From: Elusimicrobiota bacterium
GTDB taxonomy: Bacteria; Elusimicrobiota; Elusimicrobia; UBA1565; UBA9628
Reading direction: 5' to 3'
Assembly: GCA_038059415.1 (NCBI GenBank)
Contig: JBBTJN010000033.1
Coordinates: forward strand, 9,330 to 73,329
Length of the DNA: 64,000 nt
Numbering within the stretch: position 1 is the first letter of the stretch; each line of letters begins with the position of its first letter. The notes under the pieces are model-generated. The model saw nothing but the letters and a program-made list of their open reading frames with translations. It was not told the DNA's origin and did no database searches. A program made the translations under genes and the position numbers. Positions 34,276 to 55,336 of this stretch are shown here, in pieces.

Positions 34276-34337
34276 CTTAGGCGGCGGCCTGCGCGCCGCG
34301 GCGCCCGCCGACGGACTTTTCATTTGGGTTGGAGGTA

Positions 34338-36445: not shown

Positions 36446-38789
36446 GGGGGGCCATCTCCGTGAGGTAGCGCGTGTAATCCTTGTACAGCGCAATTGCAGA
36501 GACGCCGAGCAGGCGCTCCAAGCTTCGGACGGCGCCCTCGACGCCCGGCTCGAAGAAGGGCAGAGAGAACTGGCTCTTGCCGGCGCGCGTGAGCCGGGTG
36601 TCGAAGAAGATGTCGGAGTAAACGGCGTCGATCGGTCGTTCGCGCAAAAGCGTCTCAAGCTCGGTCGGGGAGTGGAAGCGGCGGATCGTTTCCATCTCGC
36701 GCCTGTCGCCGGCCGACGGGTGCGGCTGTGCGCCGCTGCACCCGCACCACAGCAGCCAATGCAGGCCGAAGCCCATTTCCCGAAGAGTGGAGAGCAGCGG
36801 TATGCCCGCGCTCCAGCGGCAGTCGCGGAGCTGAGCCAGACGCGTGGCGTCGCAGACGAAGCCGAGGCAACGCCTGCCCGCCTGGAGCTTCAGAGCTTCC
36901 CAGCGCGGCCTGCGCGGCTCGTATTTCGCGGCCCAGAGCTCGTCAAATCTTTTTGTGAGGTCGAAGAATTGCGCGATTTCGCCCAGCCAGCGGCGGGTGC
37001 CCTGCATACCGTAGGGCGGCTCGAGGACGAGCGGCGGGATCGGGAGTTTCCCGAAGAGGTCGGTCGTGAGTCCCTCGTATGCGTGGTACGGCCGTATGAC
37101 CTGAAGATCCGCGTCTGCATAGCGCGCGATGCTGTCTTGATCGAACTCGGGCAGAAGGCAGGCGTTGACCTCGATGCCCAGAGCGCCGAGCCAGGCGGTG
37201 AGCTCTCCTAGGGCGCGGTCGCGCGGGAAGCCGACGAGGTTGAGACGAGGCCCCCTCCCGCGCCGGGCGGGCGGGGCTTTTTTCCCCGCGAGAGCGAAGA
37301 GATCGGACAATAGGTCGGTGTGTTGGTCCGCGTCGCGGTCGGGGAACAAGGTGGGGATTTTCGAGCGTAGACGGAAGCGCTCGATGATCGCCTCGTTGTC
37401 ATCGCCGATCACGACCGCCGGGCATGAAGTGAGGAACACCGCCAGCGCGGTCTTGCCCGGGTCCGCGGCAAGGCCGGTCATTGCAGCCTCCAGCTTCCGG
37501 CCGCCGCCCATGATGATCTCCCCGTCCTTGATGTCGGACACGATCTGGCGCGAGTTGAGCCGTCGCAGCTCGAAGGGCAGGGGAAGGACGTTCGAGCAGT
37601 GATTGGGCCAGGGATGGTTGATGAAGCCGGCCGTCCCGTCGTCGCTGCGCGCCTCGACGAAGAAGCACTCTAGCTCCTTCTGCACGACGAAGGCGGTGCC
37701 GCGCAGGAGCGGCTTGGCTGAGTTGAGCTCAATCTCCGGGTTGGCGAAGAATTGACGCCACTGATCCTCCACGCCCCAGGTCCACGTCATCCAACGGGTG
37801 TAGGGGGGCGCTGCGGCGGCACCTGCGGCTTTCGCCAACTCGTGCGGATGGCCTGGTGCCCGCGCGGGAAGCGGCGCAGACGCCGGGGTGTCCTTGACGC
37901 ACGTCTCCACGGGAGGCGCGGCGGCCGCGGCGCGAGCGCAGCGAGGACGCCTGCGCAAGAGGAAGCGGTTTCGGTTCGCATCGTAGAATTCCGCCTCGTC
38001 CATGGGCTCGGGCACCGTGAGCTTGCTGCGGTCCAGGGCGCGCAGGCGTTTGGCGATCCGCTCCAGGTTGGGTAGGGCCGTCGGCCGCGGCACGATCTCC
38101 GTCAGGCAGCGCTCTCGAGACTCAGCTTCTCGGAATGAGAGGTCGCGGTTTACGACGCCGACGACGCTGGTGCCGATGCGGCGGGCGAAGCGCTTGATGA
38201 GCCCCACGTCGGCGCCGGGATCCCGGAGATTGGCGACGAGCCCGCAGAGGCCGACGCCGTTGCCCGCGTAATTGCGGACCGCGTGTGCGATGTTGTTGGC
38301 GGCGTACAGCGACATCGCCTCCTCGCTGACGACGATCACGACTTTCTCCGCGAAGCCCAGGCGCAGGGGCGCGGCGAAGCCTCCGCAGACCACGTCTCCC
38401 AGCACGTCGAACGTCACGATGTCGTAGGCGCCGCGCTCGATGATCCGGTCGCGCTGGAGCACCTCGATCATTTTGCTGATGCCGCGGCCCGCGCAGCCCA
38501 CGCCCGGCTCCGGCCCGCCCGCCTCAATGCAGTCCAGGCCGAGCCGGCTGCGCATGAGGAATTCCGAGGATGGAGCGACGCCGAGATCCTCGCCTTGACG
38601 GCTCAGCACGCAGCGCGCCTCGGGCCGCTCCACGAGCAATGCGGTCGAGTCTCGCTTGGGGTCGCAGCCGACGTGGAGAACGCGCAGTCCCGATCTGGCG
38701 TAGATCGCGCTCAGGTTCGAGGAGATGGTCGACTTGCCGCTTCCGCCCTTGCCGAAGAATACGAGTTTTTCCGGCGTCCGTGAAATCAT
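36438..38789 (-). CDS. Fusion protein: N-terminal NifH-like (nitrogenase iron-protein family) ATPase joined to a C-terminal B-type nitrogenase component-1-like domain.
   Basis: The N-terminus is [13 protein letters not shown] (P-loop). It has the cluster Cys pair GCAGRG...VCGGFA, which matches the NifH/BchL/CfbC signature. The C-terminal 500 aa align with B-type paralogs ([51 protein letters not shown]). Confidence 0.75.
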
Positions 38790-38929: not shown

Positions 38930-40135
38930 ATGAAGTCGACAACTCGATGTAACCAGAAGCCGAAATCTCTGCGCTTGTCCGAACGGGCGGGGGAAGCGAC
39001 GGATCGTCGCCAACTCGCGACGCGCCTCAGCCGTCTCGGTCTGAGGACTGAGGACCCCTTTCACAGCGCGACCATCGGCGAGGTCTACCTCATGCTCACG
39101 ATGGATTGCAATCTGCGCTGCCAGGCCTGCTCGCTGTGGGGCGAGGGCGGCGCATGCCATCGTAAGGCGTACTTCGAGGGCATCTCCGAGGCGGCGCCGT
39201 TGGAGCGTTTGCGCGCGTTCATCGACGAACTCGTCGCCTTCCGGCCCGAGTATGTGAACTTCGCGGGCGGCGAGCCACTGATGAGCCCGCACTGGAGAGA
39301 GCTGTCCCGGCGCGCCAAGGACCGAGGCCTGCGCACCATCCTCACGACGAACGGCGTGTTCCTAGACCGCTTCGCCCAGGAGGTGGCAGCAAACTTCGAC
39401 CAGGTCAACATCTCAATCGCGTGCCCGCCCGCCATGAGCAAGGAACTGCGCGGGGGACCTTCGGGGCATTACCAGGTCATGATGTGCGGCCTCAAGCGCC
39501 TGGCGGGCCTGCGCGACCGCGGCGCCGGGCGTAAGCCGATACTGAGGCTGATGTGCGAAGTCTTCGATTCCAACGGCGATCATCTCATTTCGCTCATCGA
39601 CCATCTCAAGGACGAGGGCGTGGCCTTCGATGAGATTTATTTCATGCACTTGATTTTCAACCGTCCAAGCGTGTTGTCGGCGCAGAAGCGGGTGTTCAAA
39701 GAGGAGTTCGGCATCCCTCTCGGTCTGTGGAACGGCTACGGCTATCGTCCGCACGCCATGGATTACGAGGCGCTGGACCGGGCGTTGGGCAAGCTGCGGG
39801 ACTCCTTGCCTCACGCGCGCTTCAATATCGCCCTGCGTGGCGCGAAGGCGCTGCGCGACTACTACGAGGGCCGCCGCAGGGGACTGGGCGCGGCATTCTG
39901 CGACGGGCCCTGGCGTCAGGTTAATGTATTTCCGAACGGGCAGGTCTGGGTGTGTCCCGATTACGTGCTGGGCGACCTTCGCGAGGGGAACTTCGCCGGA
40001 ATATGGGACGGTCCCAAGGCCCGCGCGCTTCGCCGCCGGACTTTCTCGAATATCTTTCCGGCGTGCCGCGGCTGCTTCTCGTTCTATGAGAAGGAGCAGC
40101 CGGTCGGCTCCGTTGACGCGGGAGCGCCCGAGTGA
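38930..40135 (+). CDS. Radical SAM/SPASM-domain protein.
   Basis: The motifs are CNLRCQAC and AGGEPLM. The C-terminal SPASM-like cysteines are CDGPWRQVNVFPNGQVWVCPDY...CRGC. The start may instead be the ATG at about 39092 (MLTMDC...), which is preceded by GAGG. Confidence 0.7.
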   Translation: MKSTTRCNQKPKSLRLSERAGEATDRRQLATRLSRLGLRTEDPFHSATIGEVYLMLTMDCNLRCQACSLWGEGGACHRKAYFEGISEAAPLERLRAFIDELVAFRPEYVNFAGGEPLMSPHWRELSRRAKDRGLRTILTTNGVFLDRFAQEVAANFDQVNISIACPPAMSKELRGGPSGHYQVMMCGLKRLAGLRDRGAGRKPILRLMCEVFDSNGDHLISLIDHLKDEGVAFDEIYFMHLIFNRPSVLSAQKRVFKEEFGIPLGLWNGYGYRPHAMDYEALDRALGKLRDSLPHARFNIALRGAKALRDYYEGRRRGLGAAFCDGPWRQVNVFPNGQVWVCPDYVLGDLREGNFAGIWDGPKARALRRRTFSNIFPACRGCFSFYEKEQPVGSVDAGAPE

Positions 40136-41820
40136 AGCACTCGACGGCCGGGCCCCGGGCCCTGGCGGCCGTGTCGACGCTTCTTGGCTTGGAGGCAAAG
40201 GGCTGGAGGCTGGACGGCCTGTGCGTCGAGGGCGGCGAACGCGCGCGCCTGTGCTTAGTGAGAGGCGAGCATCGCTTCGTCTTTCATCTTCTGGCGAGCG
40301 GGTTCGCGCTGAAGGCGGAGACCGAGGCGGGGCCGGCGCAGAAGCGCCTGCTGGAATTCCTGGCGGCGAGGCTGGGGCGCCGGCGGCTCGCGGACGTGGT
40401 GAAGCTCATCGATTCCGATCCCGACTCTTTCGTCGAGGAACTGACGCCCGGCGCGGACGGCGACCGCATAAAGGTCCCTTACGTCGCCGGGCCCATGGGC
40501 TTGTGGGAAGCGGGCTGGCGCAACTTCTTCGCGGATCAGGACTTCGAGATCCTGATGGAGGCGCCGGAGCCCACGTCGAACAACACTGTCACCGTCGAAT
40601 ACGCCGACCTCGAGTGCTTCTGCGCCCGCCCGGACATCAGTTTCAGCCAGTGGAGCTTCCTCGACTGGCCCGACGAGTCCGTGGACCTCGGCGAGGCCGG
40701 CGAGGACGCCTTTGTCGCCATTGAGCTCGAAGAGAAGGACATGGTCATGGGGACCGGCGAGAAGGCCGACGAGATGATCTCCGAGGTTCGCCGCCTCGCC
40801 GACGCCGGCAATTACATGGTCGTCACCCACCTGTGCACTCCGATCGTCATGGGCGAGGACTTCCAGGCGCTGGCGAAGCGTTGCGAGGAGGAGGTGGGCG
40901 GGACCTCGGTGAGCTGGAGCCAGAAGGATCGCGACCGCGGCGACAATTTCGGCGCGCATTTCCGTGAACTTCTCGGGAGACCCGGATTTTTCGAGGGCCC
41001 CGGCGACGCCGCCGCCGTCAACCTTTTTCACTTCCCGACGGAGTTCCGCGAGAAGCAGCTGCGCCCGTTCCTTGAGGAGATGGGACTCAAGGTCAACGTG
41101 TGCGTATTCCCCGTCGTGGATTTCCCGTCGCTTGAGCGCCTGCCCTTGGCACGCTGGCAGGTTTTTTGGGAGAAGCCGTCCTACGCCGACAAGACCCTTC
41201 AGTTCATGCGTGAGACCACTCGTCCGGTGGTGATGGCGCGCGCGCCTTATGGTGTGAAGGGGACGCGCCACTGCCTGCGCGCCATCGCAGCAGCGGTGGG
41301 TATGGAGCGGCAGTTTGAGGCGGTCTGGGCCAATCAATTTGCGTCCTTCCTCCCGTCCTGGGAGGAACGATGCAAGGAGGCCGCAACCTACCGGCTCGCC
41401 TTCGTAGTGTCGGAGTCGATCATGCCGCGCCTTCTGGATCTGCGCTACGGCCACGGCGCGCCCCTGGCGAGCATGCTGATGGAGATGGGTTTCGTCCTCG
41501 ATCTATTGTACTTCGACCGCCATGGAGGAGTTCCGCAACTGCCGCCGGGGTTGCACGGGGCGACGATCACGACATTCCGCAGCCCGTGCGAACTGGAGCG
41601 CCTGCTGCGCGAGGGGGAGTTTCGCGCCGTTTACTCGGATATCTTCTTCGACTGGCGCGTCAGCGCCGCAGGCAAGTCCCGGTTCTCCAGCCGCGATTTC
41701 GAGATGGGGCTCTCGGGCGCGAGTCGCAGTCTGGATCGGCTCTTGAATGCCTGTCGCCTTCCCTTCTACCGCCGCTACGGCGCGCGGCTGGCCCGCCGAT
41801 CCCGGAGGGTGAATGTCTAG
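40132..41820 (+). CDS. Nitrogenase component-1-like subunit, B-type, copy 2.
   Basis: It is a paralog of the 32545 gene, with THLCTPIVMGEDF and [29 protein letters not shown]. Confidence 0.7.
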   Translation: MKHSTAGPRALAAVSTLLGLEAKGWRLDGLCVEGGERARLCLVRGEHRFVFHLLASGFALKAETEAGPAQKRLLEFLAARLGRRRLADVVKLIDSDPDSFVEELTPGADGDRIKVPYVAGPMGLWEAGWRNFFADQDFEILMEAPEPTSNNTVTVEYADLECFCARPDISFSQWSFLDWPDESVDLGEAGEDAFVAIELEEKDMVMGTGEKADEMISEVRRLADAGNYMVVTHLCTPIVMGEDFQALAKRCEEEVGGTSVSWSQKDRDRGDNFGAHFRELLGRPGFFEGPGDAAAVNLFHFPTEFREKQLRPFLEEMGLKVNVCVFPVVDFPSLERLPLARWQVFWEKPSYADKTLQFMRETTRPVVMARAPYGVKGTRHCLRAIAAAVGMERQFEAVWANQFASFLPSWEERCKEAATYRLAFVVSESIMPRLLDLRYGHGAPLASMLMEMGFVLDLLYFDRHGGVPQLPPGLHGATITTFRSPCELERLLREGEFRAVYSDIFFDWRVSAAGKSRFSSRDFEMGLSGASRSLDRLLNACRLPFYRRYGARLARRSRRVNV

Positions 41821-43114
41821 CCCGGGCGTCCGGTTCAATCTTCCCTTTCTCCACGGACTCTATGTCGCCTTCAACGCCATCCCCGACGCCTACTTCTTGG
41901 GCGACGGACCGAGCTGCGTATTCGCCAAGGCCGAGCACATACACGGCCGCCACGACCAGTTCTCCACGCTTCTCTCCTGCGGCAGCGATCATCGCATCCA
42001 GTACACGGGAGTCAACGTCTTCAACATCGCCGGCAACTTCGAGGCGGAGATATCCTCGGCGCTCAAGCGCATCGCAGGCTGGCGGAGTTCCGGCGTGATC
42101 TTCACCGGGGCGATGCCCATGTGCGCCGTCGCCGGTACCGATTACGAGAGAATACTGCGCGACGCCTTGGCCGGATGCGGCAAGCCCGCGTTCCTCATCC
42201 CGAGGCGTTCGGCCGTCTCCGGCGACTGGCTTGATGGCTACGCGGGCGGCCTCGAGGTCATCGCCGCAGGCATCGATCTCGCAGGAGCCAAACCCAAAAA
42301 GGGAAGCGCCGCGATCGTGGGCTATTTGATGGACCGCAACGAGGGCGACCACCAGGGCAACATACGCGAGCTCGAGTGCATGCTGCGCGCTTTGGGCATC
42401 GAGCCGGTCTCGATCTGGCTCTCGGGCCGCCCGTACGAGCACCTGCGCGAGATCCGGCGGGCGGGGGCGATCATCTCCCTGCCCTACGGCCGTGCGGCGG
42501 CGAAGACGCTGGCTAAGCGCCTAGGCGTGAAGCTCGTCGAGGCTGAGCTTCCCTTTGGGCTGGAGGCGAGCCGGCGGTTCGTGGAACTGCTGGGACGCGA
42601 GTTCGGCAGCGAGGACAAGGCTCGCGCCTTCATCGAGGCGGAGCTCGATGCGGTGGTGCCGCGGCTGGAGTGGAGCGTTCCGCACGCCTTCGCCAACCGC
42701 CGCTTCGCGTTCGCGGGGGATCCGCATTACGCCGAGGGATTCGCTGAGGTTGTCGAGGAACTCGGCGGACGCATCGTGGCGACGATCGTTATGGGCCGCA
42801 CCGGACATCTCAACGAGGAACGGCGGCGTCTGCTCGAGGCCCGGTCCGGCACGGTGTTCGAGCCGGATCGGGCCAAGTTGCGGCGCCTGTTCGGGGCGAC
42901 GACGCGCTGGGAGGTGGACCTTCTTGTCTGCAACAGCCGCAGCCTCAAGTACATCAACCCCCGGATTCCGTGGCTCGAGTTCGGCTTTCCCTCGGAATAC
43001 ACCCATTTCCTCGACAACGCGCCTTTCCTGGGATTTCGGGGAGCGCTCACCTTCCTCTCGCGGATGGCCAACGAGGTTGTCAAGGGCCTGCGCATGAAGT
43101 CGGCGGCGCCGTGA
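41813..43114 (+). CDS. Nitrogenase component-1-like subunit, A-type, copy 3.
   Basis: The N-terminus is MSSPGVRFNLPFLHGLYVAFNAIPDAYFLGDGPSC. It is a paralog of the 31242 gene. Confidence 0.7.
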   Translation: MSSPGVRFNLPFLHGLYVAFNAIPDAYFLGDGPSCVFAKAEHIHGRHDQFSTLLSCGSDHRIQYTGVNVFNIAGNFEAEISSALKRIAGWRSSGVIFTGAMPMCAVAGTDYERILRDALAGCGKPAFLIPRRSAVSGDWLDGYAGGLEVIAAGIDLAGAKPKKGSAAIVGYLMDRNEGDHQGNIRELECMLRALGIEPVSIWLSGRPYEHLREIRRAGAIISLPYGRAAAKTLAKRLGVKLVEAELPFGLEASRRFVELLGREFGSEDKARAFIEAELDAVVPRLEWSVPHAFANRRFAFAGDPHYAEGFAEVVEELGGRIVATIVMGRTGHLNEERRRLLEARSGTVFEPDRAKLRRLFGATTRWEVDLLVCNSRSLKYINPRIPWLEFGFPSEYTHFLDNAPFLGFRGALTFLSRMANEVVKGLRMKSAAP

Positions 43115-44499: not shown

Positions 44500-45488
44500 G
44501 ACCGCTCCGGCTCGACCTCATCCTGACTCGGATCTGCCCCATGGCCTGCGTGTACTGCCATATGGATCACCGGCCGGGCGTGATGAGCCCGCGCGTGTGG
44601 CGCAAGGCCGTGGACCTCCTTCTCAGGGAGCAAGGGCCTCTGGAACTCCAGCTCATGGGGGGCGAGCCGCTCGTCGAGTATGATCTCGTGCGGGAGATTT
44701 TGACCTACGCGGCCGCGGCGGCCGCCAAAAAGAGGAAAGCCCTCGGCCTCGGGGTGACCACCAATGGGCTGCTCCTCACCGCGAAGCGCGCTGCCGAGCT
44801 CCGGCGCCTCGGAGCCCGCGTGATGCTGAGCTTCGACGGCGACAAGGACGTGCAGACCGCGCAGCGGACTCAGCGGGCGGGCGGGGAAAAGTTCTGGACG
44901 GTGCTGAAGCGCAATTTGGCGGCGTTGGGGGCCTCCGGAAATCCCTTCTTCGTCAACATCGTCGTCACCCCCGAGTCCGCCGGACGATTGTCCCAAGGCG
45001 TCACCTTCCTGCTTGGTCAAGGAGTGCGCGCCTTCCAGATCAGCTACGCCTTGGGTGTTTTTTGGGATGAGGAGCGCTTGAATATCTTGGAAGAGGAACT
45101 GCGCAAGAGCTACCGACAGGCCGACGCGGCTCTTCCACCTGCGGAGGTGTTCAACCGCCGCAACGACGCCGAGCCGGTGCTGCTGAGCCCGCAGCATGTC
45201 GTTGATACAGACGGGCGGCTGTATGTCGGAACCTCGATCGTGCTCGAGCATCTCTGGCCGGCTCTGCACCGGTCTTTCCTGGTCGGCGCCGTCGGCAAGC
45301 TGCGCAGCTTTCCTGGGCGAGGCGTGGGGCCGCAGGAGCAGCTTCGCCGCCTGCGCGCCGCGGATGTCGCCGGCGAGGCGCGCCGGACCATGCGCAACAA
45401 TCTGGCGGTCGGGAAACGGATGCGCGAGTTCTGGAAGAAGGAGATACTCCTCGCGCCGGGATCCGATTATCGCAAAGGAGGCCGCTGA
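44484..45488 (+). CDS. Radical SAM protein.
   Basis: The motifs are CPMACVYC and MGGEPLV. The internal ATG at 44484 (MQNQVRPLRLDL...) is placed just upstream of the Cys motif. Confidence 0.65.
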   Translation: MQNQVRPLRLDLILTRICPMACVYCHMDHRPGVMSPRVWRKAVDLLLREQGPLELQLMGGEPLVEYDLVREILTYAAAAAAKKRKALGLGVTTNGLLLTAKRAAELRRLGARVMLSFDGDKDVQTAQRTQRAGGEKFWTVLKRNLAALGASGNPFFVNIVVTPESAGRLSQGVTFLLGQGVRAFQISYALGVFWDEERLNILEEELRKSYRQADAALPPAEVFNRRNDAEPVLLSPQHVVDTDGRLYVGTSIVLEHLWPALHRSFLVGAVGKLRSFPGRGVGPQEQLRRLRAADVAGEARRTMRNNLAVGKRMREFWKKEILLAPGSDYRKGGR

Positions 45489-47242
45489 TGTCTTTCCAGG
45501 CTCAGGTGGCGCACCTGTTGGCGGGCGCGAAATCCACGGCGGCCCTTGCGAAGCTGCTGGGCGTGTCGGGGGCGAAGGATGGGTGGACCTTGCGGTCGTT
45601 GTGCGGAGTCGGCGCGACGAATGTCCGCGTCGGCCTAAGCAAAGGCAAGATGCGCCTCGCGTTCTATCTTCTGCCCAAGGGCGCGCCGAACGCCGTCGCC
45701 GAGACCGCCGGGCTGTCCTTGACTGCCGAGGGAGATCCGGGGCCGGCCATGAGAAGGCTCGTCGCAGCTGTGGCCGGACGGCTCGGCGCGCGCACCCTGG
45801 AGGACGTCCTCAAAATAATCGCGGACGATCCCGAGACCTTCGTCGAGATGGTGCCGGGCGGAGGCCCGGAGAGCGGCCTGCGCGTGCCCCTGGCCGCGGG
45901 CCCGATCAACCTTCTCGAGGCCGGCTGGCGCAACTTCTTCGCCGATCAGGACTATGAGGTCCTTCTCGGCTATCCTGAGCTGAAGATGAACAAGACGATC
46001 TACGCGCGCTACTCCGACCGCGAGTGCCTGTACTCGTGGTCCGGCAACGACCCTCGCAAATGGTCGTTCTTCGCCTATCCGGTGCGGGTTCCCTCCGACA
46101 GCTTCGGGGCGACGGTGTTTCGCACAGGGATCGTGATGGAACTTGAGGAGCGCGACATGGTCCTGGGCGCAGTCGAGAAGGCTGACGCCTTGGTCGAGTC
46201 GGTGGCCAAGGCCTCGGTCGGCTCCGGCGCGGATTACGTCGTCTTCAACCACTTCTGCACCTCAATTGTCATGGGCGAGGACTCCGGGTCGATTACGCGC
46301 CGCATCGAGGAAGCCAGCGGACTGAAAACCGTCTGCTGGAGCCACGGCGATCGCGATCAACTCAACAACTTCGGCGAGCACTTCAAGCAGTTGTTCGCCA
46401 AGCCCGGATTCTTTGACGCCCCCGTCGAGAAATCGTCCGTGAACCTTTTCCATTTCCCGACTGACTTCCGTGAGGCGGAGTTGGTGCCGCTGCTCGGGGA
46501 GATGGGAGTGAAGGCCAACACGCGACTGTTCCCCGATGTGGATTTCCCGTCCATGGAGAGGATTTCAAGCGCCGCCGCCCATGTCTTCTGCGCGGCGACC
46601 TCCTACCAGTCCAAGCTTCCGGAACTCCTGGCCGGCGGGCCCCGTCCGGTGCTGACGACGCGGGCGCCGTACGGGATCGAGGATACCGGAGAGTGCCTCA
46701 AGGCCATCGCGAAGGCCGCGGGACGAGAGAAGGCCTTCGCGGCGGCCTGGAAGAAGAAGCTCTCGGCGCTCAGACCCGCCTGGGAGGACATGACGAAGCT
46801 GGCCCGGGGGTTCCGGCTTGCTTTCGTCGTGTCGGAGACGACCTTGCCCATGCTCTGGGAATTGCGCCACGGGCAGGGCGCGCCCATGATGCGTATGATC
46901 GAGGAGATGGGATTTGGCGTCGATATCCTCTACTACGACCCGCACAACGAGAGGCCGGATATCAATGCGGACTCCCGCTGCGCGAAGCTCCAAACCTTCC
47001 GTACGCCGCGGGATCTGACGCGGGCCTTGCGCGAAGGTGATTTCCGTGCGGTCTATTCGGATATCTTCTTCGACTGGAGGATCAGCGCGTCGGGCAAAGC
47101 GCGCTTCTCCAGCAAGGACTTCGAGATGGGGCTGGACGGGGCGCTGCGGTCGCTGCGTCGGCTGCTCGCGGTTTGCCGTCTGCCTTTCTATGACCGCTAC
47201 GGCAGCCATTTGGCCGGGCTTGCAGGGAGGGAACTTGCCTAA
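45488..47242 (+). CDS. Nitrogenase component-1-like subunit, B-type, copy 3.
   Basis: It is a paralog of the 40132 gene, with NHFCTSIVMGEDS and [29 protein letters not shown]. Confidence 0.7.
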   Translation: MSFQAQVAHLLAGAKSTAALAKLLGVSGAKDGWTLRSLCGVGATNVRVGLSKGKMRLAFYLLPKGAPNAVAETAGLSLTAEGDPGPAMRRLVAAVAGRLGARTLEDVLKIIADDPETFVEMVPGGGPESGLRVPLAAGPINLLEAGWRNFFADQDYEVLLGYPELKMNKTIYARYSDRECLYSWSGNDPRKWSFFAYPVRVPSDSFGATVFRTGIVMELEERDMVLGAVEKADALVESVAKASVGSGADYVVFNHFCTSIVMGEDSGSITRRIEEASGLKTVCWSHGDRDQLNNFGEHFKQLFAKPGFFDAPVEKSSVNLFHFPTDFREAELVPLLGEMGVKANTRLFPDVDFPSMERISSAAAHVFCAATSYQSKLPELLAGGPRPVLTTRAPYGIEDTGECLKAIAKAAGREKAFAAAWKKKLSALRPAWEDMTKLARGFRLAFVVSETTLPMLWELRHGQGAPMMRMIEEMGFGVDILYYDPHNERPDINADSRCAKLQTFRTPRDLTRALREGDFRAVYSDIFFDWRISASGKARFSSKDFEMGLDGALRSLRRLLAVCRLPFYDRYGSHLAGLAGRELA

Positions 47243-48572
47243 GGCACCGGGAGTGCGCCTCAATCCTCCGTATCTTCATGGGGCATTTTTGGCCCTCAAC
47301 GCGATCTCAGACGCCTATTTCCTGGGCGACGGTCCTGACTGCATTCGGGCCAAGGGCGAGCAGATACACGGCAGGCATGATCTCTTCTCGACCTTGATGT
47401 CCTGCAAGGGCGAGCACCGCATCCATTACACGGGTCTGAGCGTGTTCAACATCGCAGCGAACCTCGAAGGCGAGATCGCCGCGGGCCTCGAGCGCATCGC
47501 GCAAAGGCCAGCCTGCGGCGCGGTCTTCATGGGCTCGGTGCCGATGTGCACAATCGCTGGCACCGATTACGAACGTATCGTGAGGCAGGTTTTCGACGGC
47601 GGCTTCAAGCCGGCCTTCGTCGTTCCTCCTCAGATCGGCCTGGCGGGGGACTGGCTCGACGGCTACGCAGCGGTTCTCGAAGTCATGGCCAAGGGCATGG
47701 ACCTGAGCGGCGCCGCGCCGCGGTCGGAGAACGTGGCGGTGGTCGGCTACATGATGGGGCGCAACGAGGGCGACCACAAGGGCAATATCCGTGAGATCGA
47801 GAGAATCCTACGCGCCCTGGATCTCGAACTGGTTTCGACCTGGCTTTCGGGCGGCGACTACGAGAGCCTGCGGGCGGTTCGCCGGGCCGGATCCATCATC
47901 GCCTTCGGACATGGGCGCAAGGCGGCGGGAATATTGGCGGAGAGGCTGGGCGTCAGGCTCATCGACGCCGAGCTTCCCTTCGGCCTGGCCGCGACGAAGC
48001 GCTTCGTCGAAGCTCTCGGTCGTGATTTCGGCAGGGAGGCGCAGGCCGAGGCCTTCATTCGTGCGGAGCTCGATGCCGTGGTTCCGGCGCTCGAATGGGC
48101 GGTGCCTCATGCCTTCCTGGGACGGCGCTTCGCCTATGTCGGCGACCCGCATTACGCAGCGGCCTTCGCCGAGATGATCGAGGAACTGGGCGGGGAGATC
48201 GCGGGGATGATTTTGCTCGGCGGGGAGCGGCATCTGAGGCAGGCCGCGAGAGCCTCTCTGACGGCGCGTTCGCGGACCGTATTCGAGCCAATGCAGAACG
48301 ATCTCGCGCGGGACTGGGTCGGCCTGAAGCGCAAGGACGCAGACGTGCTCGTGGCCACCACGATGGCCGTTGAATTCCTCAGGCCCGAGACGTCGTGGCT
48401 CGAATTTGGCTATCCCTCGGACTACACGCACTTCCTCAAGGACGAGCCTTTTCTCGGTTTCCGCGGAGCGCTGGGATTCTGCTCTCGGCTGGCCAACGAG
48501 GTGACCAAGGGGTTCTGCATGGATTGGATGACGCCGCGGGAAATGCAGTCAAAGGAAACTGTATCATCATGA
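47235..48572 (+). CDS. Nitrogenase component-1-like subunit, A-type, copy 4.
   Basis: The TTG start gives LPKAPGVRLNPPYLHGAFLALNAISDAYFLGDGPDC, paralogous to other A-type N-termini. It is preceded by GGAGGG. Confidence 0.65.
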   Translation: MPKAPGVRLNPPYLHGAFLALNAISDAYFLGDGPDCIRAKGEQIHGRHDLFSTLMSCKGEHRIHYTGLSVFNIAANLEGEIAAGLERIAQRPACGAVFMGSVPMCTIAGTDYERIVRQVFDGGFKPAFVVPPQIGLAGDWLDGYAAVLEVMAKGMDLSGAAPRSENVAVVGYMMGRNEGDHKGNIREIERILRALDLELVSTWLSGGDYESLRAVRRAGSIIAFGHGRKAAGILAERLGVRLIDAELPFGLAATKRFVEALGRDFGREAQAEAFIRAELDAVVPALEWAVPHAFLGRRFAYVGDPHYAAAFAEMIEELGGEIAGMILLGGERHLRQAARASLTARSRTVFEPMQNDLARDWVGLKRKDADVLVATTMAVEFLRPETSWLEFGYPSDYTHFLKDEPFLGFRGALGFCSRLANEVTKGFCMDWMTPREMQSKETVSS

Positions 48573-48618: not shown

Positions 48619-49449
48619 ATGAGCATGGAGAACAACATCGTCGTCTTTGGGAAGGGCGGCATCGGAAAATCCACGATCTCGTCGAACTTAAGCTCGATCT
48701 ATGCCCTCCAGGGACTCAAGGTCCTGCACGTGGGCTGCGATCCCAAACACGACAGCACGTTGGGCCTCGTTGATGGCGAGCTGATCGAAACTTTCATGGA
48801 GAAGTACACGCGGATATTCGGGGTGCGCGATCATGCCGAGCTCAAGCCCTCCGACCTCATCGTCAAGGGCCGCCTCGGCATCGACTGCGTCGAGGCCGGC
48901 GGACCGGAGCCGGGCGTGGGATGCGCGGGACGGGGAATCTCCCTGATGCTCGAGGCGTTGCAGGACCTGGGCGTGTTGAAGGCGGGCGGCTATGACGCGC
49001 GAATATTTGATGTTCTTGGAGACGTCGTATGCGGCGGCTTCGCCGCGCCTCTGCGCAAGGGCTTCGCCGAGAAGATAGTCATCGTGGTTTCGGAGGAGCT
49101 CATGGCTCTGTACGCGGCCAACAACATCGCCAAGTCCGTTAAAACGTACTCCTCGAACGGCGTTTATCTCGCGGGCTTGGTGGCCAACCTGAAGGACGGC
49201 AAGGTGGAACGCAAGAAGCTCGAGACCTTTGCTAGAACACTGGGGACCCGAATACTGGAGTTTGTGCCGCGCGATCCGGCCGTGCGCAAGGCGGAATTCG
49301 CCCGCAAGAATACGGTCGTCGAGATGGCGCCCAAGAGCCCTTTCGCGAAGAGCATCACGTCCCTGGCGGCGAAGGTTCGTGCCATCCGCAGAGAGGACTG
49401 CCCTATTCCCACACCCATGGATGATCGCCAATTCTACAAGGGCTGGTGA
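48619..49449 (+). CDS. Stand-alone NifH-like ATPase (nitrogenase iron protein / BchL / CfbC family).
   Basis: 276 aa. The P-loop is VVFGKGGIGKST. The cluster Cys pair is GCAGRG and [12 protein letters not shown]. It has 60-70% identity to the N-terminal domains of the two fusion proteins. Confidence 0.85.
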   Translation: MSMENNIVVFGKGGIGKSTISSNLSSIYALQGLKVLHVGCDPKHDSTLGLVDGELIETFMEKYTRIFGVRDHAELKPSDLIVKGRLGIDCVEAGGPEPGVGCAGRGISLMLEALQDLGVLKAGGYDARIFDVLGDVVCGGFAAPLRKGFAEKIVIVVSEELMALYAANNIAKSVKTYSSNGVYLAGLVANLKDGKVERKKLETFARTLGTRILEFVPRDPAVRKAEFARKNTVVEMAPKSPFAKSITSLAAKVRAIRREDCPIPTPMDDRQFYKGW

Positions 49450-49497: not shown

Positions 49498-50700
49498 GTG
49501 ACCGCGGTTTTCTACTACGGACTCTTCGTGATCCTAGCCTCGGTCATTTCGTTCCAGGACTGGAGGGAACGCAAGATTCGCAACAGCCTGATCGTCATGG
49601 GATTGCTCGCCTGCGGGGCGGGCTTCTGCCTGCTCCTGACGAACAGCCTCATAGGCGCGAGCCATGCGCGCCTCTGGCTGCTGGGAGAATACTATCTTCC
49701 TCTGGGCTACTATCCCAGAATGATCGTCCATGTCTTTCTAAGCCTCGTGGCCGGCGTGGGCTTGTGGCGCTATTCGATCTGGCCGGCCGGGGACGCGAAA
49801 TTCTTCACGCTGGCGGCGTTCTTCACCGCCCTGATCGATCCGAACATCCCCGGCTTCCCCTATTTACTTTTCCTGGTGCTTCTCATCAACATCTTCGTGC
49901 CGGCGGGCCTGGTTTTCGTAGTCGAGACTCTCGCAAATCTCGCGCTGAGCATCCCGCGCCTGCGCACGGTCAATTGGAGCGGGCGGCTTAAAGCCTGCGC
50001 AGAGGTGGTCGCCATTCGCGCCGGGGAGATGTGGCCCTATCGCGTCGAGTATCTGATCCTCGGCGTGAACCTCTTAGCCTTTTTTTTCGCGCTGCAGATG
50101 ACGGTGTTTCATTACAGCAAGCTCGTCAGGGAGCCTTGGGGGTCGCTGGCTATTTTCGTGCTCATGTTCGCCTGCTGGGGCAGCATGGTGAAAGTGCTGC
50201 GAAATAAGAAGGTCGGGGTCGTGGTGTTTACGGTCCTCTGTGTCGTGGTGCTGATGGGCGTGTTCCACCTGCACTGGGCCGTCAGGGAGGGCTTCTTCGC
50301 GGCCCTGCGCATGGTCTTTAATTTCGGGATGCTTCTCTCCGTGGGCAGACTGCTCTTTTCCTGGATCATCGAGCGCGACAGCCTCCGGGAGCTTTGCGCG
50401 TCGGACCTCAAATACGGCGACATCCTCTCTGATTTGACCTGGGCTAAAATCAGCGCGGAGAGCGACCTCTCCGGGAAAATGGGTGAGCGCTACGTCGACG
50501 GCCTGTCCCATAGCGACGTCGCGACGCTGAAAGCCTGGCTGGCGAGCCGAACGACGGCGGACTACAACATCTATCACACGATCCCGTTCGCGCTGTGGAT
50601 ATTTCTCGGAACGCTTTGGACCATTTCATATCGGGGCAGCGTCGTCACGGCCCTCGCTCCGTATTTCATCCGAGCTCAGGAGGTCCTTTGCAAAAGATAA
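49498..50700 (+). CDS. Polytopic membrane protein with an A24-type (prepilin-peptidase-like) aspartyl peptidase signature.
   Basis: It has multiple hydrophobic helices. A first Asp context (SFQDWRERKI) and the second-Asp GxGD-like motif WPAGDAKFF resemble the GGDVK/GxGDxK motif of A24 peptidases. GC content is lower than in surrounding genes. Confidence 0.45.
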   Translation: MTAVFYYGLFVILASVISFQDWRERKIRNSLIVMGLLACGAGFCLLLTNSLIGASHARLWLLGEYYLPLGYYPRMIVHVFLSLVAGVGLWRYSIWPAGDAKFFTLAAFFTALIDPNIPGFPYLLFLVLLINIFVPAGLVFVVETLANLALSIPRLRTVNWSGRLKACAEVVAIRAGEMWPYRVEYLILGVNLLAFFFALQMTVFHYSKLVREPWGSLAIFVLMFACWGSMVKVLRNKKVGVVVFTVLCVVVLMGVFHLHWAVREGFFAALRMVFNFGMLLSVGRLLFSWIIERDSLRELCASDLKYGDILSDLTWAKISAESDLSGKMGERYVDGLSHSDVATLKAWLASRTTADYNIYHTIPFALWIFLGTLWTISYRGSVVTALAPYFIRAQEVLCKR

Positions 50701-52991
50701 CGATTTTCGGTAAAGGCGGCATCGGCAAGTCCACGTTGTCGGCCAATCTGGCGGCCGTCTACGCCAAGCGCGGCCTGAAGGTCATCCTCGTGGGCTGCGA
50801 CCCCAAGCATGACACGACCATCTCTCTGACGGACGGCAAGCCCATCCGAACCGTAGTCGAGCATTCCGCCTTCATGGATTCCTCGGGCGGAGAGCTCTCC
50901 GGGATTCTGGTGCGCGGCCGGTTGGGCGTCGACTGCGTGGAGGCGGGCGGGCCCGAGCCCGGCATCGGCTGCGCGGGCCGGGGCATCGGCCGGACGATCA
51001 GCTTACTCGAGGACGCGGGAGTCCTTGATGCGGGCCGCTACGATGTCGCTCTCTTCGACGTGCTGGGGGACGTGGTCTGCGGAGGATTCGCCGCTCCCCT
51101 TCGGGAGGGCTTCGCGGACAAGGTCGTGATCGTGACCTCCGAGGAGTTGATGGCTCTCTACGCGGCCAACAATATCGCCCGCGCCATCCGCAACTACAGC
51201 GAGAACGGCGTCGCCCTGTGCGGCCTGGTTGCCAATCTCCGCGACCTGGACGCTGATCGCGCGAGCGTGTCGCGATTCGCCGAGCAGATCGGGACCGGTG
51301 TCCTCTCCTTCTTCTCCCGCGAGGCCGCCGTCCGCGAGGCGGAGTACAAACGCGTCACCTTGGTCGAGCACGCGCCCGAAAGCGAGCTGACCCGGAAGAT
51401 CGAGGCGTTGGCAGGGAGCCTCCTGAGCTTCGATCGCAGGACGGTGAGCGTGCCCAACCCTCTTACGGATGAACGCTTCAACGAGCTGTCCCGGCAGGCG
51501 TTCATCGTCAGTTCCCCCCAGTTCGGCGCGGCTCGTCCTCCTCGTCCCAGGGTTGCGCCGGTTGCTCCGCCGCCGCAGGCGCGCTCCGTCTCGCCGGTCC
51601 GGCCCGATATGGAAAAGGACATGGCTTGGCAGTCCAAGCTTTGGGAGGGGAACCCGGGCATGAACTCCCAGGTGTGGGGGGCGCAAGATCAGTGGCGGCG
51701 TTTCTACTGCGACTTTGAAACGCGCCGCAACGTCAGGATGTCCATGGAGGGAGGGACCCCCATGGTCAACGTCTGGCATCAGGACCTTGAGTGCACCTAC
51801 TCCACGCCGAACTTCGAGGACGGGAGCCTGCCGGCCTTCTACAAATTCCCCTGGCCCCGCGCGGAAAGGAACAACGATAACGGCGAGGACCGGCCTGATG
51901 ACATGTCCTTGAGCACCATCATGACGAACATCAAGGATCTCGACGTCATCCACGGCGGCGGCAAGAAGCTCGATGAGGCCATCGGCGAGGCAGTGAAGAA
52001 CGCGAAGGGACGCGCGCAAGCCATCATCGTCCACTCGACCTGCATTCCGACCGTCATCGGAGACGACGCCGAGGCCGTCGTCAAGCGCTGGCAGGCGCGC
52101 ACGAGGATCCCGATCGTCTACATGAATCCCGCCGAGAACAGCTGTCAGGAATTGGACGTATGCTTGATGCTCTTCAAGAAGATGCAACAGGCTCCTTCGT
52201 TCGCTAAGATCGCACGGCGCAAGAACACAGTGAATCTGGTGGGCTTTCCCCCCGGTCCGGCTCTCAAGGAGCTCGTAAGCCTGCTGCATGACATCGGCAT
52301 CCGGGTCAACTCCTGCGTGATGCCGACGCTGAGCCTGGAGGTCGCCCGGCGTTACCTCGCCGCCGAAGTCCAAGTCCTCTATCCGAACGCGGCCTATGCG
52401 GCGACTTATAAGGAATTTTTCGAGCCCATGCCCATCCGCACCCTCAAGCCCGGCGCGCCGTATGGATTTGAGGGGACGAAGAAGTGGCTGGAGACTTTGG
52501 CAGGCGAGTTCGGCTTGAAGAGAAAGGTCCGCTCCGCCTACGGGCAGGCGGCGAAAACTTTGACCGCCGATTGGGAGGCCGGTCGCCGCGAGGCGGCTGG
52601 CCAGGGCCTGGCCTTCGTCGTGGACGCCTATCACGTGGGGCGCCTGGCCGACCCGGCTCTGACCTGGGCGATTCCGGTGCTGAGGTTCCTGCGCGAGATG
52701 GGATTCGGCGTGGAGATATTGTGCTACGGCCGGGCCCTAAAGCAGGCGCCCCATTTTACCCCCTTCAGCGCTCCAGCGGAGCTCGAAGCGCTGCTGCTTG
52801 AGGGCCCGTTCCAGGCCGTCTACTCGGAATACGCCTATGACTCGAGGTTGGCCCGGGCCGGGAAGGCGCAGTTCTCTCTCGAGGATTTCGAGATGGGCCT
52901 GGGCGGGGCCGTGCGCACCTTGCGCAAACTGGGCGGGATTTGCCGCTGGCCGTTCCAGAGGAGATATGCGAAATACATGGGGATGTTGTAA
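50688..52991 (+). CDS. Fusion protein: NifH-like ATPase joined to a B-type nitrogenase component-1-like domain, second copy.
   Basis: A TTG start gives LQKITIFGKGGIGKST and GCAGRG...VCGGFA. The C-terminal domain carries WRRFYCDFE, DVIHGGGKK, VHSTCIPTVIGDD and AVYSEYAYDSRLARAGKAQFS. The track ORF starts 31 codons earlier inside the upstream gene. Confidence 0.75.
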   Translation: MQKITIFGKGGIGKSTLSANLAAVYAKRGLKVILVGCDPKHDTTISLTDGKPIRTVVEHSAFMDSSGGELSGILVRGRLGVDCVEAGGPEPGIGCAGRGIGRTISLLEDAGVLDAGRYDVALFDVLGDVVCGGFAAPLREGFADKVVIVTSEELMALYAANNIARAIRNYSENGVALCGLVANLRDLDADRASVSRFAEQIGTGVLSFFSREAAVREAEYKRVTLVEHAPESELTRKIEALAGSLLSFDRRTVSVPNPLTDERFNELSRQAFIVSSPQFGAARPPRPRVAPVAPPPQARSVSPVRPDMEKDMAWQSKLWEGNPGMNSQVWGAQDQWRRFYCDFETRRNVRMSMEGGTPMVNVWHQDLECTYSTPNFEDGSLPAFYKFPWPRAERNNDNGEDRPDDMSLSTIMTNIKDLDVIHGGGKKLDEAIGEAVKNAKGRAQAIIVHSTCIPTVIGDDAEAVVKRWQARTRIPIVYMNPAENSCQELDVCLMLFKKMQQAPSFAKIARRKNTVNLVGFPPGPALKELVSLLHDIGIRVNSCVMPTLSLEVARRYLAAEVQVLYPNAAYAATYKEFFEPMPIRTLKPGAPYGFEGTKKWLETLAGEFGLKRKVRSAYGQAAKTLTADWEAGRREAAGQGLAFVVDAYHVGRLADPALTWAIPVLRFLREMGFGVEILCYGRALKQAPHFTPFSAPAELEALLLEGPFQAVYSEYAYDSRLARAGKAQFSLEDFEMGLGGAVRTLRKLGGICRWPFQRRYAKYMGML

Positions 52992-54262
52992 TGGGACAGC
53001 AATTCAGCTCGCCGATGAATTATCCGACCCTTCTCGGCGTCTACCTGGCGGTCAACGCGCTGAAGGACGCGTACGTGCTAGTCGACGGGCCCGACTGCGC
53101 CTTTTACAAGGCCCACTTTATCCACGGCCGTCATGACCTGAACTCGACCTTGCTTCGCATCAGCGGCCGCCATCGTGTCGCCTTCACCAACATCTGCTCG
53201 CGCGGCGTCGTCAAGGAGCACGACGACATCCTCGGCCGTGAGATTCAGAGGATGGATGGCCTTGAGGAATCAGGGCTGGTCCTGGTGACGGCGCTGCCCA
53301 TGTGCTCGATTACGGGAGTCGATTACGGCCGCGTGATCCGACTGCGCGCCAAAAGCCTGAGCAAGCCGGCCATCGACATACCGCCCGAGTCTTTGGTCGG
53401 CGATTGGCTCGACGGCTATGACCAGACGCTCCACGCGTTGGCCAAGGGGATCGAGCTCGACGCCAGCCTGCGTCGTCCGAGGACCGTGGCCGTCGTCGGT
53501 CATCTCATGGACCGCAACGAGGGCGATCATCTCGCCAACATCGCCGAGATGCAGCGTATGCTTCAAAGCCTTTCTTTGGAGACGGTCTCCGTCTGGCTCA
53601 GCGGGCAGGATTGCTCAGACCTACGCCGCGTCGAGGAGGCCGACATCATCGTCTCCTTGCCCTACGGTCGCGCCGCGGCGCGGCGCCTGGCGAAGCGGAC
53701 GGGCGCGCGCCTCGTGGAGACCGAGCTCCCGTTCGGGCTTCCCAAGACCGTGCGCTTCATGCGCGACGTCGGCGCCGCCGCGGGCAAGGACCGGGAGGCC
53801 GAGGCCTTCATCGACGCGGAATTGTCGAGGGTGGTTCCGCGCCTGAAGTGGATCATACCGCAATATTTCCTCAATCGCCGCACGGGTTTCATGGGCGATC
53901 CGTATCTCCTGGGCGGCTTCCGGGACATCGCCGAGGACCTCGGCATGAAGGTGGAGGGGGCCATCGTCCGCGGTCGCAGCGCGCACGGCGTCGCATCGGC
54001 GGGCGCCGACGTGCTTTATGAACCGCCGTCCATGTCCGACGAGGTCCGCAAATTTATGCAGCTCCCTCTCGATGTTTTTGTCTCCTGCTGGTGCGAGCAT
54101 GAGTGGCCTCAACTTAAATTCCCGACGATGGAATTCGGCTTTCCCAGCTACCGTCACCATGCGCTCTCCGACCGTCCTTTCCTGGGTTTCAACGGGTTCT
54201 TGGCCTTTGTGGAGAGAATGGCCGATGAGTTGACCCGTCCGCCCCGGAAGGCCCATGGTTAA
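52991..54262 (+). CDS. Nitrogenase component-1-like subunit, A-type, copy 5.
   Basis: The N-terminus is MGQQFSSPMNYPTLLGVYLAVNALKDAYVLVDGPDC. The ATG overlaps the upstream TAA (TAATG). Confidence 0.7.
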   Translation: MGQQFSSPMNYPTLLGVYLAVNALKDAYVLVDGPDCAFYKAHFIHGRHDLNSTLLRISGRHRVAFTNICSRGVVKEHDDILGREIQRMDGLEESGLVLVTALPMCSITGVDYGRVIRLRAKSLSKPAIDIPPESLVGDWLDGYDQTLHALAKGIELDASLRRPRTVAVVGHLMDRNEGDHLANIAEMQRMLQSLSLETVSVWLSGQDCSDLRRVEEADIIVSLPYGRAAARRLAKRTGARLVETELPFGLPKTVRFMRDVGAAAGKDREAEAFIDAELSRVVPRLKWIIPQYFLNRRTGFMGDPYLLGGFRDIAEDLGMKVEGAIVRGRSAHGVASAGADVLYEPPSMSDEVRKFMQLPLDVFVSCWCEHEWPQLKFPTMEFGFPSYRHHALSDRPFLGFNGFLAFVERMADELTRPPRKAHG

Positions 54263-54577: not shown

Positions 54578-55336
54578 TTGACGACGGACACGACGCTTTC
54601 CAAGCACGTGCTTTTCCTCGTGCCTTGGCACATCGGCAACAGGCTTGATGTCACGGTCCACGCGGCCCGCCTCGCGCGAAATATTCGCGTTTTCCTGACG
54701 GAGGAGCCCGCGCTCACCCGGCGCCAGTTCGAGGGCGACTTGGGTGTCGACTGCAAGGGGAAGGAATTCCTGCTCATCCCCGAAAAGGAGAATCCGCGGT
54801 TCCTTAAGGAAGTCCTGGCCAGGCTGCGCACGGAGGACGTGGCCTTGATCTGCTCGGGCGGCATTCCCTGTTTTATCGATCCCGGCGCCTGGCTGGTCAA
54901 GAGCCTACGCGAGCGCGACATGCCGATGAGGGCATTGGCCGGCGCCTCGATCCTGTCTACGATGCTGTCGCTGAGCGCGATGGACTGGACGGGGACGCAT
55001 AATCGCGGGACCTTCGTCATCTATCTCGCCTCCGGTCCCGAGGGCGACGTGCACGCCTCCCTGCTTGAGGCCGTTCGCCGGGAGGACGAGCCGGTGTTCA
55101 TCTTCCTGGCCCTGACCCAGTTCCGGGAGTGCATCACGAACATCGAGCCCGTCATCGGCAAGCGCCTCGTCAGCACCTTCTTCGACCTCACCAAGAAGCC
55201 GCCTGGGAAGTACCCTTACGCGGACCGGGTGATGACCAAGGGCTGTCGCGAATGGCTGAAGGAGGCGGATCGCATCCCGTGGAAGGAGATTTCGGACGTG
55301 GCGCTGATGGTCCATCCTCGCGAGGCCGCGGCATGA
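54578..55336 (+). CDS. Tetrapyrrole-methylase-fold (TP_methylase, RsmI-like) SAM-dependent methyltransferase family protein.
   Basis: LFLVPWHIGNRLDVTVHAARLARNIRVFLTE and ICSGGIPCFIDPGAWLVKSLRE...ALAGASILSTMLSLSAMDW parallel RsmI/CobA-type motifs (LVSDAGTPLISDPG...). Confidence 0.55.
   Translation: MTTDTTLSKHVLFLVPWHIGNRLDVTVHAARLARNIRVFLTEEPALTRRQFEGDLGVDCKGKEFLLIPEKENPRFLKEVLARLRTEDVALICSGGIPCFIDPGAWLVKSLRERDMPMRALAGASILSTMLSLSAMDWTGTHNRGTFVIYLASGPEGDVHASLLEAVRREDEPVFIFLALTQFRECITNIEPVIGKRLVSTFFDLTKKPPGKYPYADRVMTKGCREWLKEADRIPWKEISDVALMVHPREAAA

Follow-up and report, generated by a model that had tools for sequence, protein, structure and literature searches.

Can a NifH-like reductase and a nitrogenase component-1-like subunit be one polypeptide, and what would such a protein do? 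The question is raised by 64,000 nucleotides of an Elusimicrobiota bacterium contig (JBBTJN010000033.1, positions 9,330 to 73,329; hereafter the window, G+C ~65%), where a sequence-only reading had noticed two copies of a gene joining an N-terminal NifH-like domain to a component-1-like domain, and had remarked that the reductase is a separate protein in all characterized nitrogenase-like (NFL) systems, a point with which a 2026 review agrees, mentioning no fusion or tether (PMC13474568). Both open reading frames (ORFs), here called fusion 1 (767 aa) and fusion 2 (783 aa), translate without a stop or frameshift, and both Pfam domains are significant in each, with Fer4_NifH at residues 2-270 (E 1.6e-82) and Oxidored_nitro at residues 410-682 (E 4.2e-28) of fusion 1, and at residues 8-268 (E 6.6e-69) and 417-617 (E 6.3e-18), respectively, of fusion 2. 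The two proteins, 39% identical overall, are genuine, selected genes rather than artifacts, and we consider it reasonably probable that each is a tethered ATP-dependent reductase on an alpha-type catalytic subunit, with a separate, translationally coupled beta subunit.

Structurally, the junctions had been guessed at about 51500 and 37950 and in fact lie close by, at ~51504-51674 in fusion 1 and 37782-37964 in fusion 2, with no frameshift or stop at either. The longest possible fusion 1 ORF starts at a GTG at 50595; the TTG at 50688, with AGGAGG ahead of it, is the likely start codon and yields the canonical NifH N-terminus M-x-K-I-x-I-F-G-K-G-G. At the other end, the stop codon TAA of fusion 1 shares bases with the ATG of its partner gene (TAATG at 52991), and the partner of fusion 2 overlaps the end of that fusion by 8 nt at 36445; because the partner genes overlap the fusion stop codons in this way, translational coupling of the two subunits is indicated.

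An erroneous read-through that merged adjacent nflH and nflD genes during sequencing or assembly would produce the same picture, and such an origin might be suspected given that the window comes from a metagenome-type assembly and that the exact fusion 1 protein, from either the 50688 or the 50595 start, has no match in the gene index. We regard it as exceedingly improbable. Fusion 2 is identical to a database protein (P0078) over 783 of 783 residues, which is encoded on at least five contigs from groundwater metagenome assemblies (Hainich), and in three separately assembled ENA contigs that were examined (ERZ1292622, ERZ2470813, ERZ1300416) the fusion 2 gene is nucleotide-identical to that of the window; independent assemblies, which could have split the gene in two, thus return it fused. 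More broadly, a search of 5.8 billion proteins for relatives of fusion 1 returned more than 100 clusters with PF00142 and PF00148 on one chain, and 78 full-length fused homologs from many samples (36-85% identity) were aligned with both window fusions, giving the 80 sequences used below. Evolutionarily, fusion 1 differs from its 80%-identical homolog on a contig from an NCBI metagenome-assembled genome (MAG; contig L001) by indels that are exclusively in frame, those of the linker included, with ratios of nonsynonymous to synonymous substitution rates (dN/dS) below 1 throughout, at 0.10 (NifH domain), 0.47 (linker) and 0.18 (catalytic domain). The only close relatives of fusion 1 that appear unfused (P0039 and P0073) both begin at contig edges and are truncated there; in P0039 the frame stays open as far as the contig's first base and runs into the conserved end of the linker.

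Functionally, the N-terminal domain carries what a working Fe protein requires at the level of motifs. It had been described beforehand as ~270 aa long, its P-loop intact and both cluster-ligating cysteines present, and this holds in both fusions: the P-loop reads GKGGIGKST or GKGGSGKST, switch I reads CDPKxD, the equivalent of Cys97 lies in GxGCAGRGI together with the equivalent of Arg100, and switch II and the equivalent of Cys132 share the motif [11 protein letters not shown]. In fusion 1, Cys95 and Cys131 are the equivalents of Cys97 and Cys132 of Azotobacter vinelandii (Av) NifH, and both are invariant in the 80-sequence alignment, as are G8-K9-G10-G11, G13-K14-S15-T16, C37-D38-P39-K40, D42, R98, D124 and G127-D128. 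With scores of 277.5 and 232.8 bits against a PF00142 gathering cut-off of 25, and with the NifH fold, the fused domains belong to the NifH/Fe-protein-like superfamily; within it, they stay below the cut-offs of the named subfamilies, namely true NifH (TIGR01287, 276 and 235 bits against 394) and, for fusion 1, CfbC (NF033200, 284 against 402), BchL (TIGR01281, 201 against 345) and BchX (TIGR02016, 160 against 331). The stand-alone NifH-like gene noted earlier at 48619 is likewise a significant Fer4_NifH match. In a neighbor-joining tree, all three NifH sequences of the window fall in one clade with Elusimicrobia relatives, apart from the NifH-family sequences of other genomes; the tree is rough, having no bootstrap support and a sampling biased to fused proteins, and is not taken to show how often or in which direction fusions arose within Group VI, the NFL group to which the locus is assigned below. 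The MinD/ParA/Get3 group of ATPase switches includes NifH, and its members appear among the structural matches, so the fused domain might be a degenerate or regulatory module, an ATP- or redox-gated lid that transfers no electrons. We find this very unlikely, since a purely regulatory role would not need the cluster cysteines, which are invariant along with the nucleotide and switch motifs across the 80 sequences, in a domain evolving at a dN/dS of 0.10.

The two domains are joined by a linker of 47-121 residues (median 62 in the 80 sequences) with a high content of Ala, Pro, Arg and Gly and little conservation. An AlphaFold2 monomer model of fusion 1, built with the 80-sequence alignment, reached a mean predicted local distance difference test score (pLDDT) of 83.9, with confident NifH and component-1 domains and a pLDDT below 50 at residues 276-314. 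As modeled, then, the interdomain stretch is a flexible tether and not a rigid joint, which weakens the earlier suggestion that docking and undocking would be constrained by the fusion. By a rough estimate from the dimensions of the Av1-Av2 complex, a disordered leash of about 60 residues would be long enough for docking over the D/K interface, ATP hydrolysis, release and re-reduction while keeping the reductase from diffusing off.

The C-terminal domain belongs to the nitrogenase component-1 superfamily, by both its PF00148 gathering score and its fold. It had been labeled a B-type subunit; however, alpha chains (MarD, NifE and NifD) lead its PDB sequence matches, its best NCBIfam family is nifE (61 bits), and it reaches only 38 bits against a cut-off of 490 for BchB (TIGR01278) of dark-operative protochlorophyllide oxidoreductase (DPOR). 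An unfused D-like paralog from the window, the core of which is homologous to the fused domain (hhalign probability 100%), yielded a model for which the first 46 Foldseek matches listed were all alpha chains. The balance leans toward an alpha, NifD/NifE-like subunit, with the K/beta-like partner encoded by the next gene, without being decisive. In the 80-sequence alignment, this domain has invariant E368, C452, G458 and D459, and C369 in at least 90% of the sequences; Cys452 lies in a TC..IGDD motif and aligns with the position of the alpha-chain P-cluster ligand Cys154 (MarD, NifE, NifD). The partner K-like subunits likewise hold two invariant cysteines, in DGPxC and PMC motifs. Only two conserved cysteines were found per D or K subunit, and since Cys369 and Cys452 add to the two of the partner, there are four candidate ligands, a number that would suit a single [4Fe-4S]-type cluster between D and K. 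Two per D and two per K match the statement that Group VI D/K pairs retain at most four of the six P-cluster cysteine positions (Chem Rev 2026, PMC13474568).

These features place the fusions near several known enzymes and set them apart from each. DPOR (BchL2/(BchNB)2), chlorophyllide oxidoreductase (COR; BchX/BchYZ) and CfbC/CfbD have an ATP-dependent NifH-type reductase with its bridging [4Fe-4S] cluster, the component-1 fold and a simple [4Fe-4S] cluster at the subunit interface with no iron-molybdenum cofactor, the set predicted for the fusions as well, but in all of them the reductase is a free homodimer. The DPOR cluster is held by three Cys and one Asp, whereas that of the fusions would apparently be held by two Cys from each subunit. 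MarHDK, the methylthio-alkane reductase (MAR; PDB 9d9u, 9fmg), is only 14-17% identical, has a separate MarH, and contains complex P- and L-type clusters for which the fused proteins appear to lack the needed cysteine set. Engineered NifH fusions and Nif polyproteins for plant and yeast expression indicate that NifH tolerates placement in a larger polypeptide; they are artificial, made for expression or targeting rather than as a reductase-catalytic tether (PMC13385145, PMC10017450).

Is the fusion, then, singular to these genes? It is not: the NifH-component-1 fusion is widespread in public metagenomes, recurrent, and evolved more than once, and the locus type has already been named. Scanned exhaustively with HMMER, 1.84 billion representative proteins yielded 293 members of the D-like family at E <= 1e-30, and NifH motifs were present in 21 of the 150 best. 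A contig scan with generic NifH motifs (GKGG[IS][12 protein letters not shown]) reached saturation with ordinary nifH genes and contained only about six loci with true fusion relatives, and it was here that fusions from Methanomassiliicoccales surfaced. In two MAGs of that order, single ORFs of 706 and 717 aa (L008 9697-11817 and L020 6497-8650) combine NifH (residues 5-273) with a NifE-like domain (Oxidored_nitro, residues 301-658), with partner ORFs downstream (433 aa in L008, a Pfam component-1 protein; 462 aa in L020, a candidate); they match the "fused nifH/nifE" entry in a table of Borrel 2014 (PMC4153887). A further type comprises tandem NifH-NifH-D proteins of ~1090 aa (P0113 and P0115; also P0114 and P0116), in which two complete NifH domains precede component-1, making each protein a predicted covalent Fe-protein pseudo-dimer joined to a D-like subunit; one such locus (L087 8001-11300) has a 433-aa component-1 partner and adjoining FecCD/periplasmic-binding/ATP-binding cassette (ABC) transporter and methyltransferase genes. 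Both types share with the window fusions the domain order (NifH N-terminal, alpha/E-like C-terminal) and a separate partner of ~433 aa (L008, L087); they differ in falling into other NifH clades of the rough tree, in their much shorter gap or second NifH, and in the FecCD/ABC neighbors, and are themselves uncharacterized. Separately, four proteins of 990-1085 aa of Deltaproteobacteria/Myxococcota type (P0104, P0082, P0088, P0118) consist of NifH, a spacer of ~400 aa and a D-like domain; the spacer may hold at least one copy of the domain with which the unfused paralogs described below begin, which would link the fused and unfused architectures.

Mechanistically, because one NifH protomer supplies half of the bridging cluster, the tethered domains would have to dimerize. 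We posit that two tethered NifH domains would come together around a bridging [4Fe-4S] cluster, each giving the equivalents of Cys97 and Cys132; that this dimer would bind MgATP and then dock on a D/K pair; that an electron would pass to a simple [4Fe-4S]-type cluster for which D and K would each supply two Cys; and that ATP hydrolysis would be followed by undocking on the leash and re-reduction. The NifH-NifH-D tandems are in keeping with a reductase dimer being required in cis. The complex may be (H-D)2K2, in which both catalytic halves would depend on a single reductase dimer and hence on an alternating half-sites service, both the stoichiometry and the identity of the dimer partner being postulated. 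The benefit of a tether would lie in raising the local concentration of the reductase and in keeping cognate partners together within a locus that encodes five paralogous D/K pairs and three reductases. Taken further, the tethered domains of (H-D)2K2 could form a single intramolecular Fe-protein dimer that swings between the halves, making an obligate half-sites machine that never dissociates, with fusion binding every reductase to a catalytic pair of its own within a five-enzyme NFL/radical S-adenosylmethionine (SAM) assembly line for a heavily reduced, methylated product; this stronger version we put forward only tentatively.

Several points weigh against a tethered reductase as the working electron donor. 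The free NflH (48619) could be the true donor or could heterodimerize with the fused domains; the domain-to-domain orientation in the AlphaFold2 model is unreliable (predicted template modeling score 0.67); three of the five D-like paralogs have no NifH and carry an unrelated N-terminal domain in its place, so the tether is not required for the enzyme type; and the Methanomassiliicoccales fusions leave ~27-38 residues between their Pfam domains, a gap that may be too short for canonical docking in cis and suggests that other geometries are possible. Finally, Group VI has no biochemically characterized member according to the review (Chem Rev 2026, PMC13474568). Heterodimerization deserves separate mention: if one tethered protomer recruited one free NflH protomer, each D/K half would have its own reductase dimer, which would resolve the mismatch between a single fused domain on every alpha subunit and docking sites that each take a dimer, and the free NflH is both in the same clade of the rough tree as the fused domains and encoded one gene upstream of fusion 1. 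Nevertheless, this is unlikely, as many related contigs carry a fusion and its partner with no free NflH in the sampled stretches (e.g., L001 and L084, the contigs being incomplete), the tandem proteins show that both protomers can be supplied in cis, and a single free partner would have to match two fusions that have diverged as far as these have.

A different role for the fused domain would be that of a maturase or insertase, which loads or remodels a metallocluster, or delivers a substrate or cofactor, on its own D/K pair, while the free NflH acts as turnover reductase for all five pairs. NifH is multifunctional, with roles alongside NifEN and in P-cluster maturation; NifE is the best family match of the D-like domain, with NifE and NifEN among its PDB matches; a free NflH gene is present; and three pairs have no tethered reductase. 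Even so, we judge this improbable. No NifB-type family match was found among the ten radical SAM proteins scanned (of ~18 in the locus), only simple clusters are expected, and we know of no characterized NFL system that needs NifH-assisted maturation of simple clusters. Moreover, switch I, switch II and Arg98 (the equivalent of the docking residue Arg100) are fully conserved, as a turnover reductase needs.

As for what the locus is, it is a Group VI NFL system of groundwater Elusimicrobia. Méheust et al. 2020 (bioRxiv 10.1101/765248), who described this group from lineages IV and V of the Elusimicrobia, reported several nifH, nifD and nifK copies amid radical SAM genes and predicted a tetrapyrrole as substrate. 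The closest homologs of the window proteins come from the groundwater Elusimicrobia MAGs GWA2_69_24, RBG_16_66_12 and RIFCSPLOWO2_12_FULL_59_9, with GWF2_62_30 also among the sources; the NifH sequences group with lineages IV/V, radical SAM genes are co-located, and H, D and K are each present in multiple copies. The window thus shares with published Group VI the taxon signal, the several H, D and K copies, the dense radical SAM and B12-radical SAM genes, and the divergent D/K with an apparently reduced cysteine set. The published description, however, has separate NflH, NflD and NflK; in the window, two of the three NflH copies share a chain with a D-like subunit.

The locus type is therefore already known; the fusion itself seems undescribed. 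The review (PMC13474568) presents NflH, NflD and NflK as three individual proteins and does not use fused, fusion, tether or linker in the relevant sense, and the text of the Méheust 2020 preprint and of its supplement mentions no fusion, although Figure S6, an image, may show fused genes. The only natural NifH-component-1 fusion found in the literature was the table entry of Borrel 2014; otherwise, fusions found there were engineered. Section 7 of the review (Chem Rev 2026, PMC13474568) puts the share of Group VI genomes with "only NflH and NflD" at about one third. This share might partly reflect fused genes labeled NifH or AAA ATPase; the current labels of fused genes are "AAA family ATPase", "nitrogenase iron protein NifH" and "nitrogenase component 1".

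The window is, in effect, one very large locus, with five D-like/K-like pairs (31242-34341 and 35147-38789 on the minus strand; 40132-43114, 45488-48572 and 50688-54262 on the plus strand), three NifH-like units and ~18 radical SAM genes, some of them B12-binding. As the earlier reading had it, NifH domains sit on two of five, here the first subunits of two of the five pairs. The other three first-of-pair subunits, the unfused D-like paralogs, are each built from a confidently modeled ~100-aa N-terminal alpha/beta domain, a disordered stretch and a D core; because they carry that domain at this position, NifH and linker take the place of another N-terminal module. The alpha/beta domain has no Pfam or NCBIfam match, and Foldseek matches are confined to the core. 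That it might be a decayed NifH was considered and rejected, as hhalign aligns the D cores only and the model is a small alpha/beta domain. The features are listed in the following table.

Table. Fusion genes, their parts and selected neighbors, in window coordinates.
Feature	Position	Strand	Remarks
Fusion 1, whole (767 aa)	50688..52991	+	NflH-like domain, linker, alpha/D-like component-1 domain; likely TTG start with AGGAGG Shine-Dalgarno
Fusion 1, NifH-family domain, residues 1-272	50688..51503	+	P-loop, switch I/II, Cys95/Cys131
Fusion 1, disordered Ala/Pro-rich linker, residues 273-329	51504..51674	+	Low pLDDT, variable length among homologs, dN/dS 0.47
Fusion 1, alpha/NifD/NifE/MarD-like component-1 domain, residues 330-767	51675..52988	+	Cys369 and Cys452 conserved
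K/beta-like partner of fusion 1 (423 aa)	52991..54262	+	Conserved Cys in DGPxC and PMC motifs
Fusion 2, whole (783 aa)	36438..38789	-	NifH 37965..38789, linker 37782..37964, D-like 36441..37781
K/beta-like partner of fusion 2 (432 aa)	35147..36445	-	Start overlaps end of fusion 2 by 8 nt
Stand-alone NflH-like reductase gene (276 aa)	48619..49449	+	Fer4_NifH E 1.8e-81
Polytopic membrane protein gene (400 aa)	49498..50700	+	Between free NflH gene and fusion 1; 13-nt overlap with fusion 1 start
Unfused D-like and K-like genes	45488..47242, 47235..48572	+	Directly upstream of free NflH gene
Unfused D-like and K-like genes	40132..41820, 41813..43114	+	D-like: ~100-aa N-terminal alpha/beta domain and disordered linker in place of NifH
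Unfused D-like and K-like genes	32545..34341, 31242..32555	-	Component-1 pair
TP_methylase-fold gene	54578..55336		Best match RsmI (rRNA methyltransferase), below cut-off; syntenic in L001

Among the neighbors, the membrane protein beside fusion 1 has a weak prepilin-peptidase-like N-terminus and no family assignment, and its location hints at a membrane-associated step or substrate. With regard to the tetrapyrrole predicted as substrate, the search of neighboring genes met no curated cut-off and gave no specific support either way: no tetrapyrrole pathway genes were identified in the window, and the sole gene of the locus with a tetrapyrrole-methylase fold, being RsmI-like, lends the hypothesis little specific support. 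No NCBIfam cut-off is reached by any radical SAM protein scanned (window regions 17932-20118, 22851-26834, 38930-40135, 42970-45488 and 55386-57589); the strongest partial matches are the peptide maturases HxsC, HxsC4, PapB and ApyD and the HpnJ and ladderane-type B12-radical SAM families, with weaker ones to the heme-related AhbC, AhbD and NirJ. Elsewhere in the window, two paralogous proteins of ~1160 aa (6197-9667, plus strand; 26609-30106, minus strand) join a 4Fe-4S ferredoxin domain, a NodU/TsaD-type carbamoyltransferase and a C-terminal, HxsC4-like radical SAM domain, an unusual architecture. In the region of the fusion 2 partner (window ~34338-36445, minus strand), the K-like gene and a downstream 270-aa gene with no family hits are called as one 701-aa gene in one of the three assemblies (L086 5345-7450) and as separate genes elsewhere (L084 5345-6643 and 6640-7452), a discrepancy that may reflect an indel variant or an assembly difference.

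What would such an enzyme mean for the family? The Fe-protein cycle of ATP-driven docking, electron transfer, dissociation and re-reduction is central to nitrogenase-type catalysis and still debated, its rate being limited by dissociation-linked steps, and recent cryo-electron microscopy (e.g., PDB 7ut9) has reportedly shown a single Fe protein on each MoFe protein under turnover. A strongly conserved natural enzyme with a reductase unable to diffuse away would be a ready system for trapping and imaging docking states, would allow tests of half-sites behavior with one reductase dimer per two catalytic halves, and could inform the design of single-polypeptide nitrogenase-like systems with a fixed stoichiometry in heterologous hosts. 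For Group VI itself, the annotation is corrected, which affects the subunit counts per genome. If a single tethered dimer does swing between the two halves, the independent H-D, H-E and H-H-D fusions in other phyla would represent a general, overlooked solution to the Fe-protein cycle.

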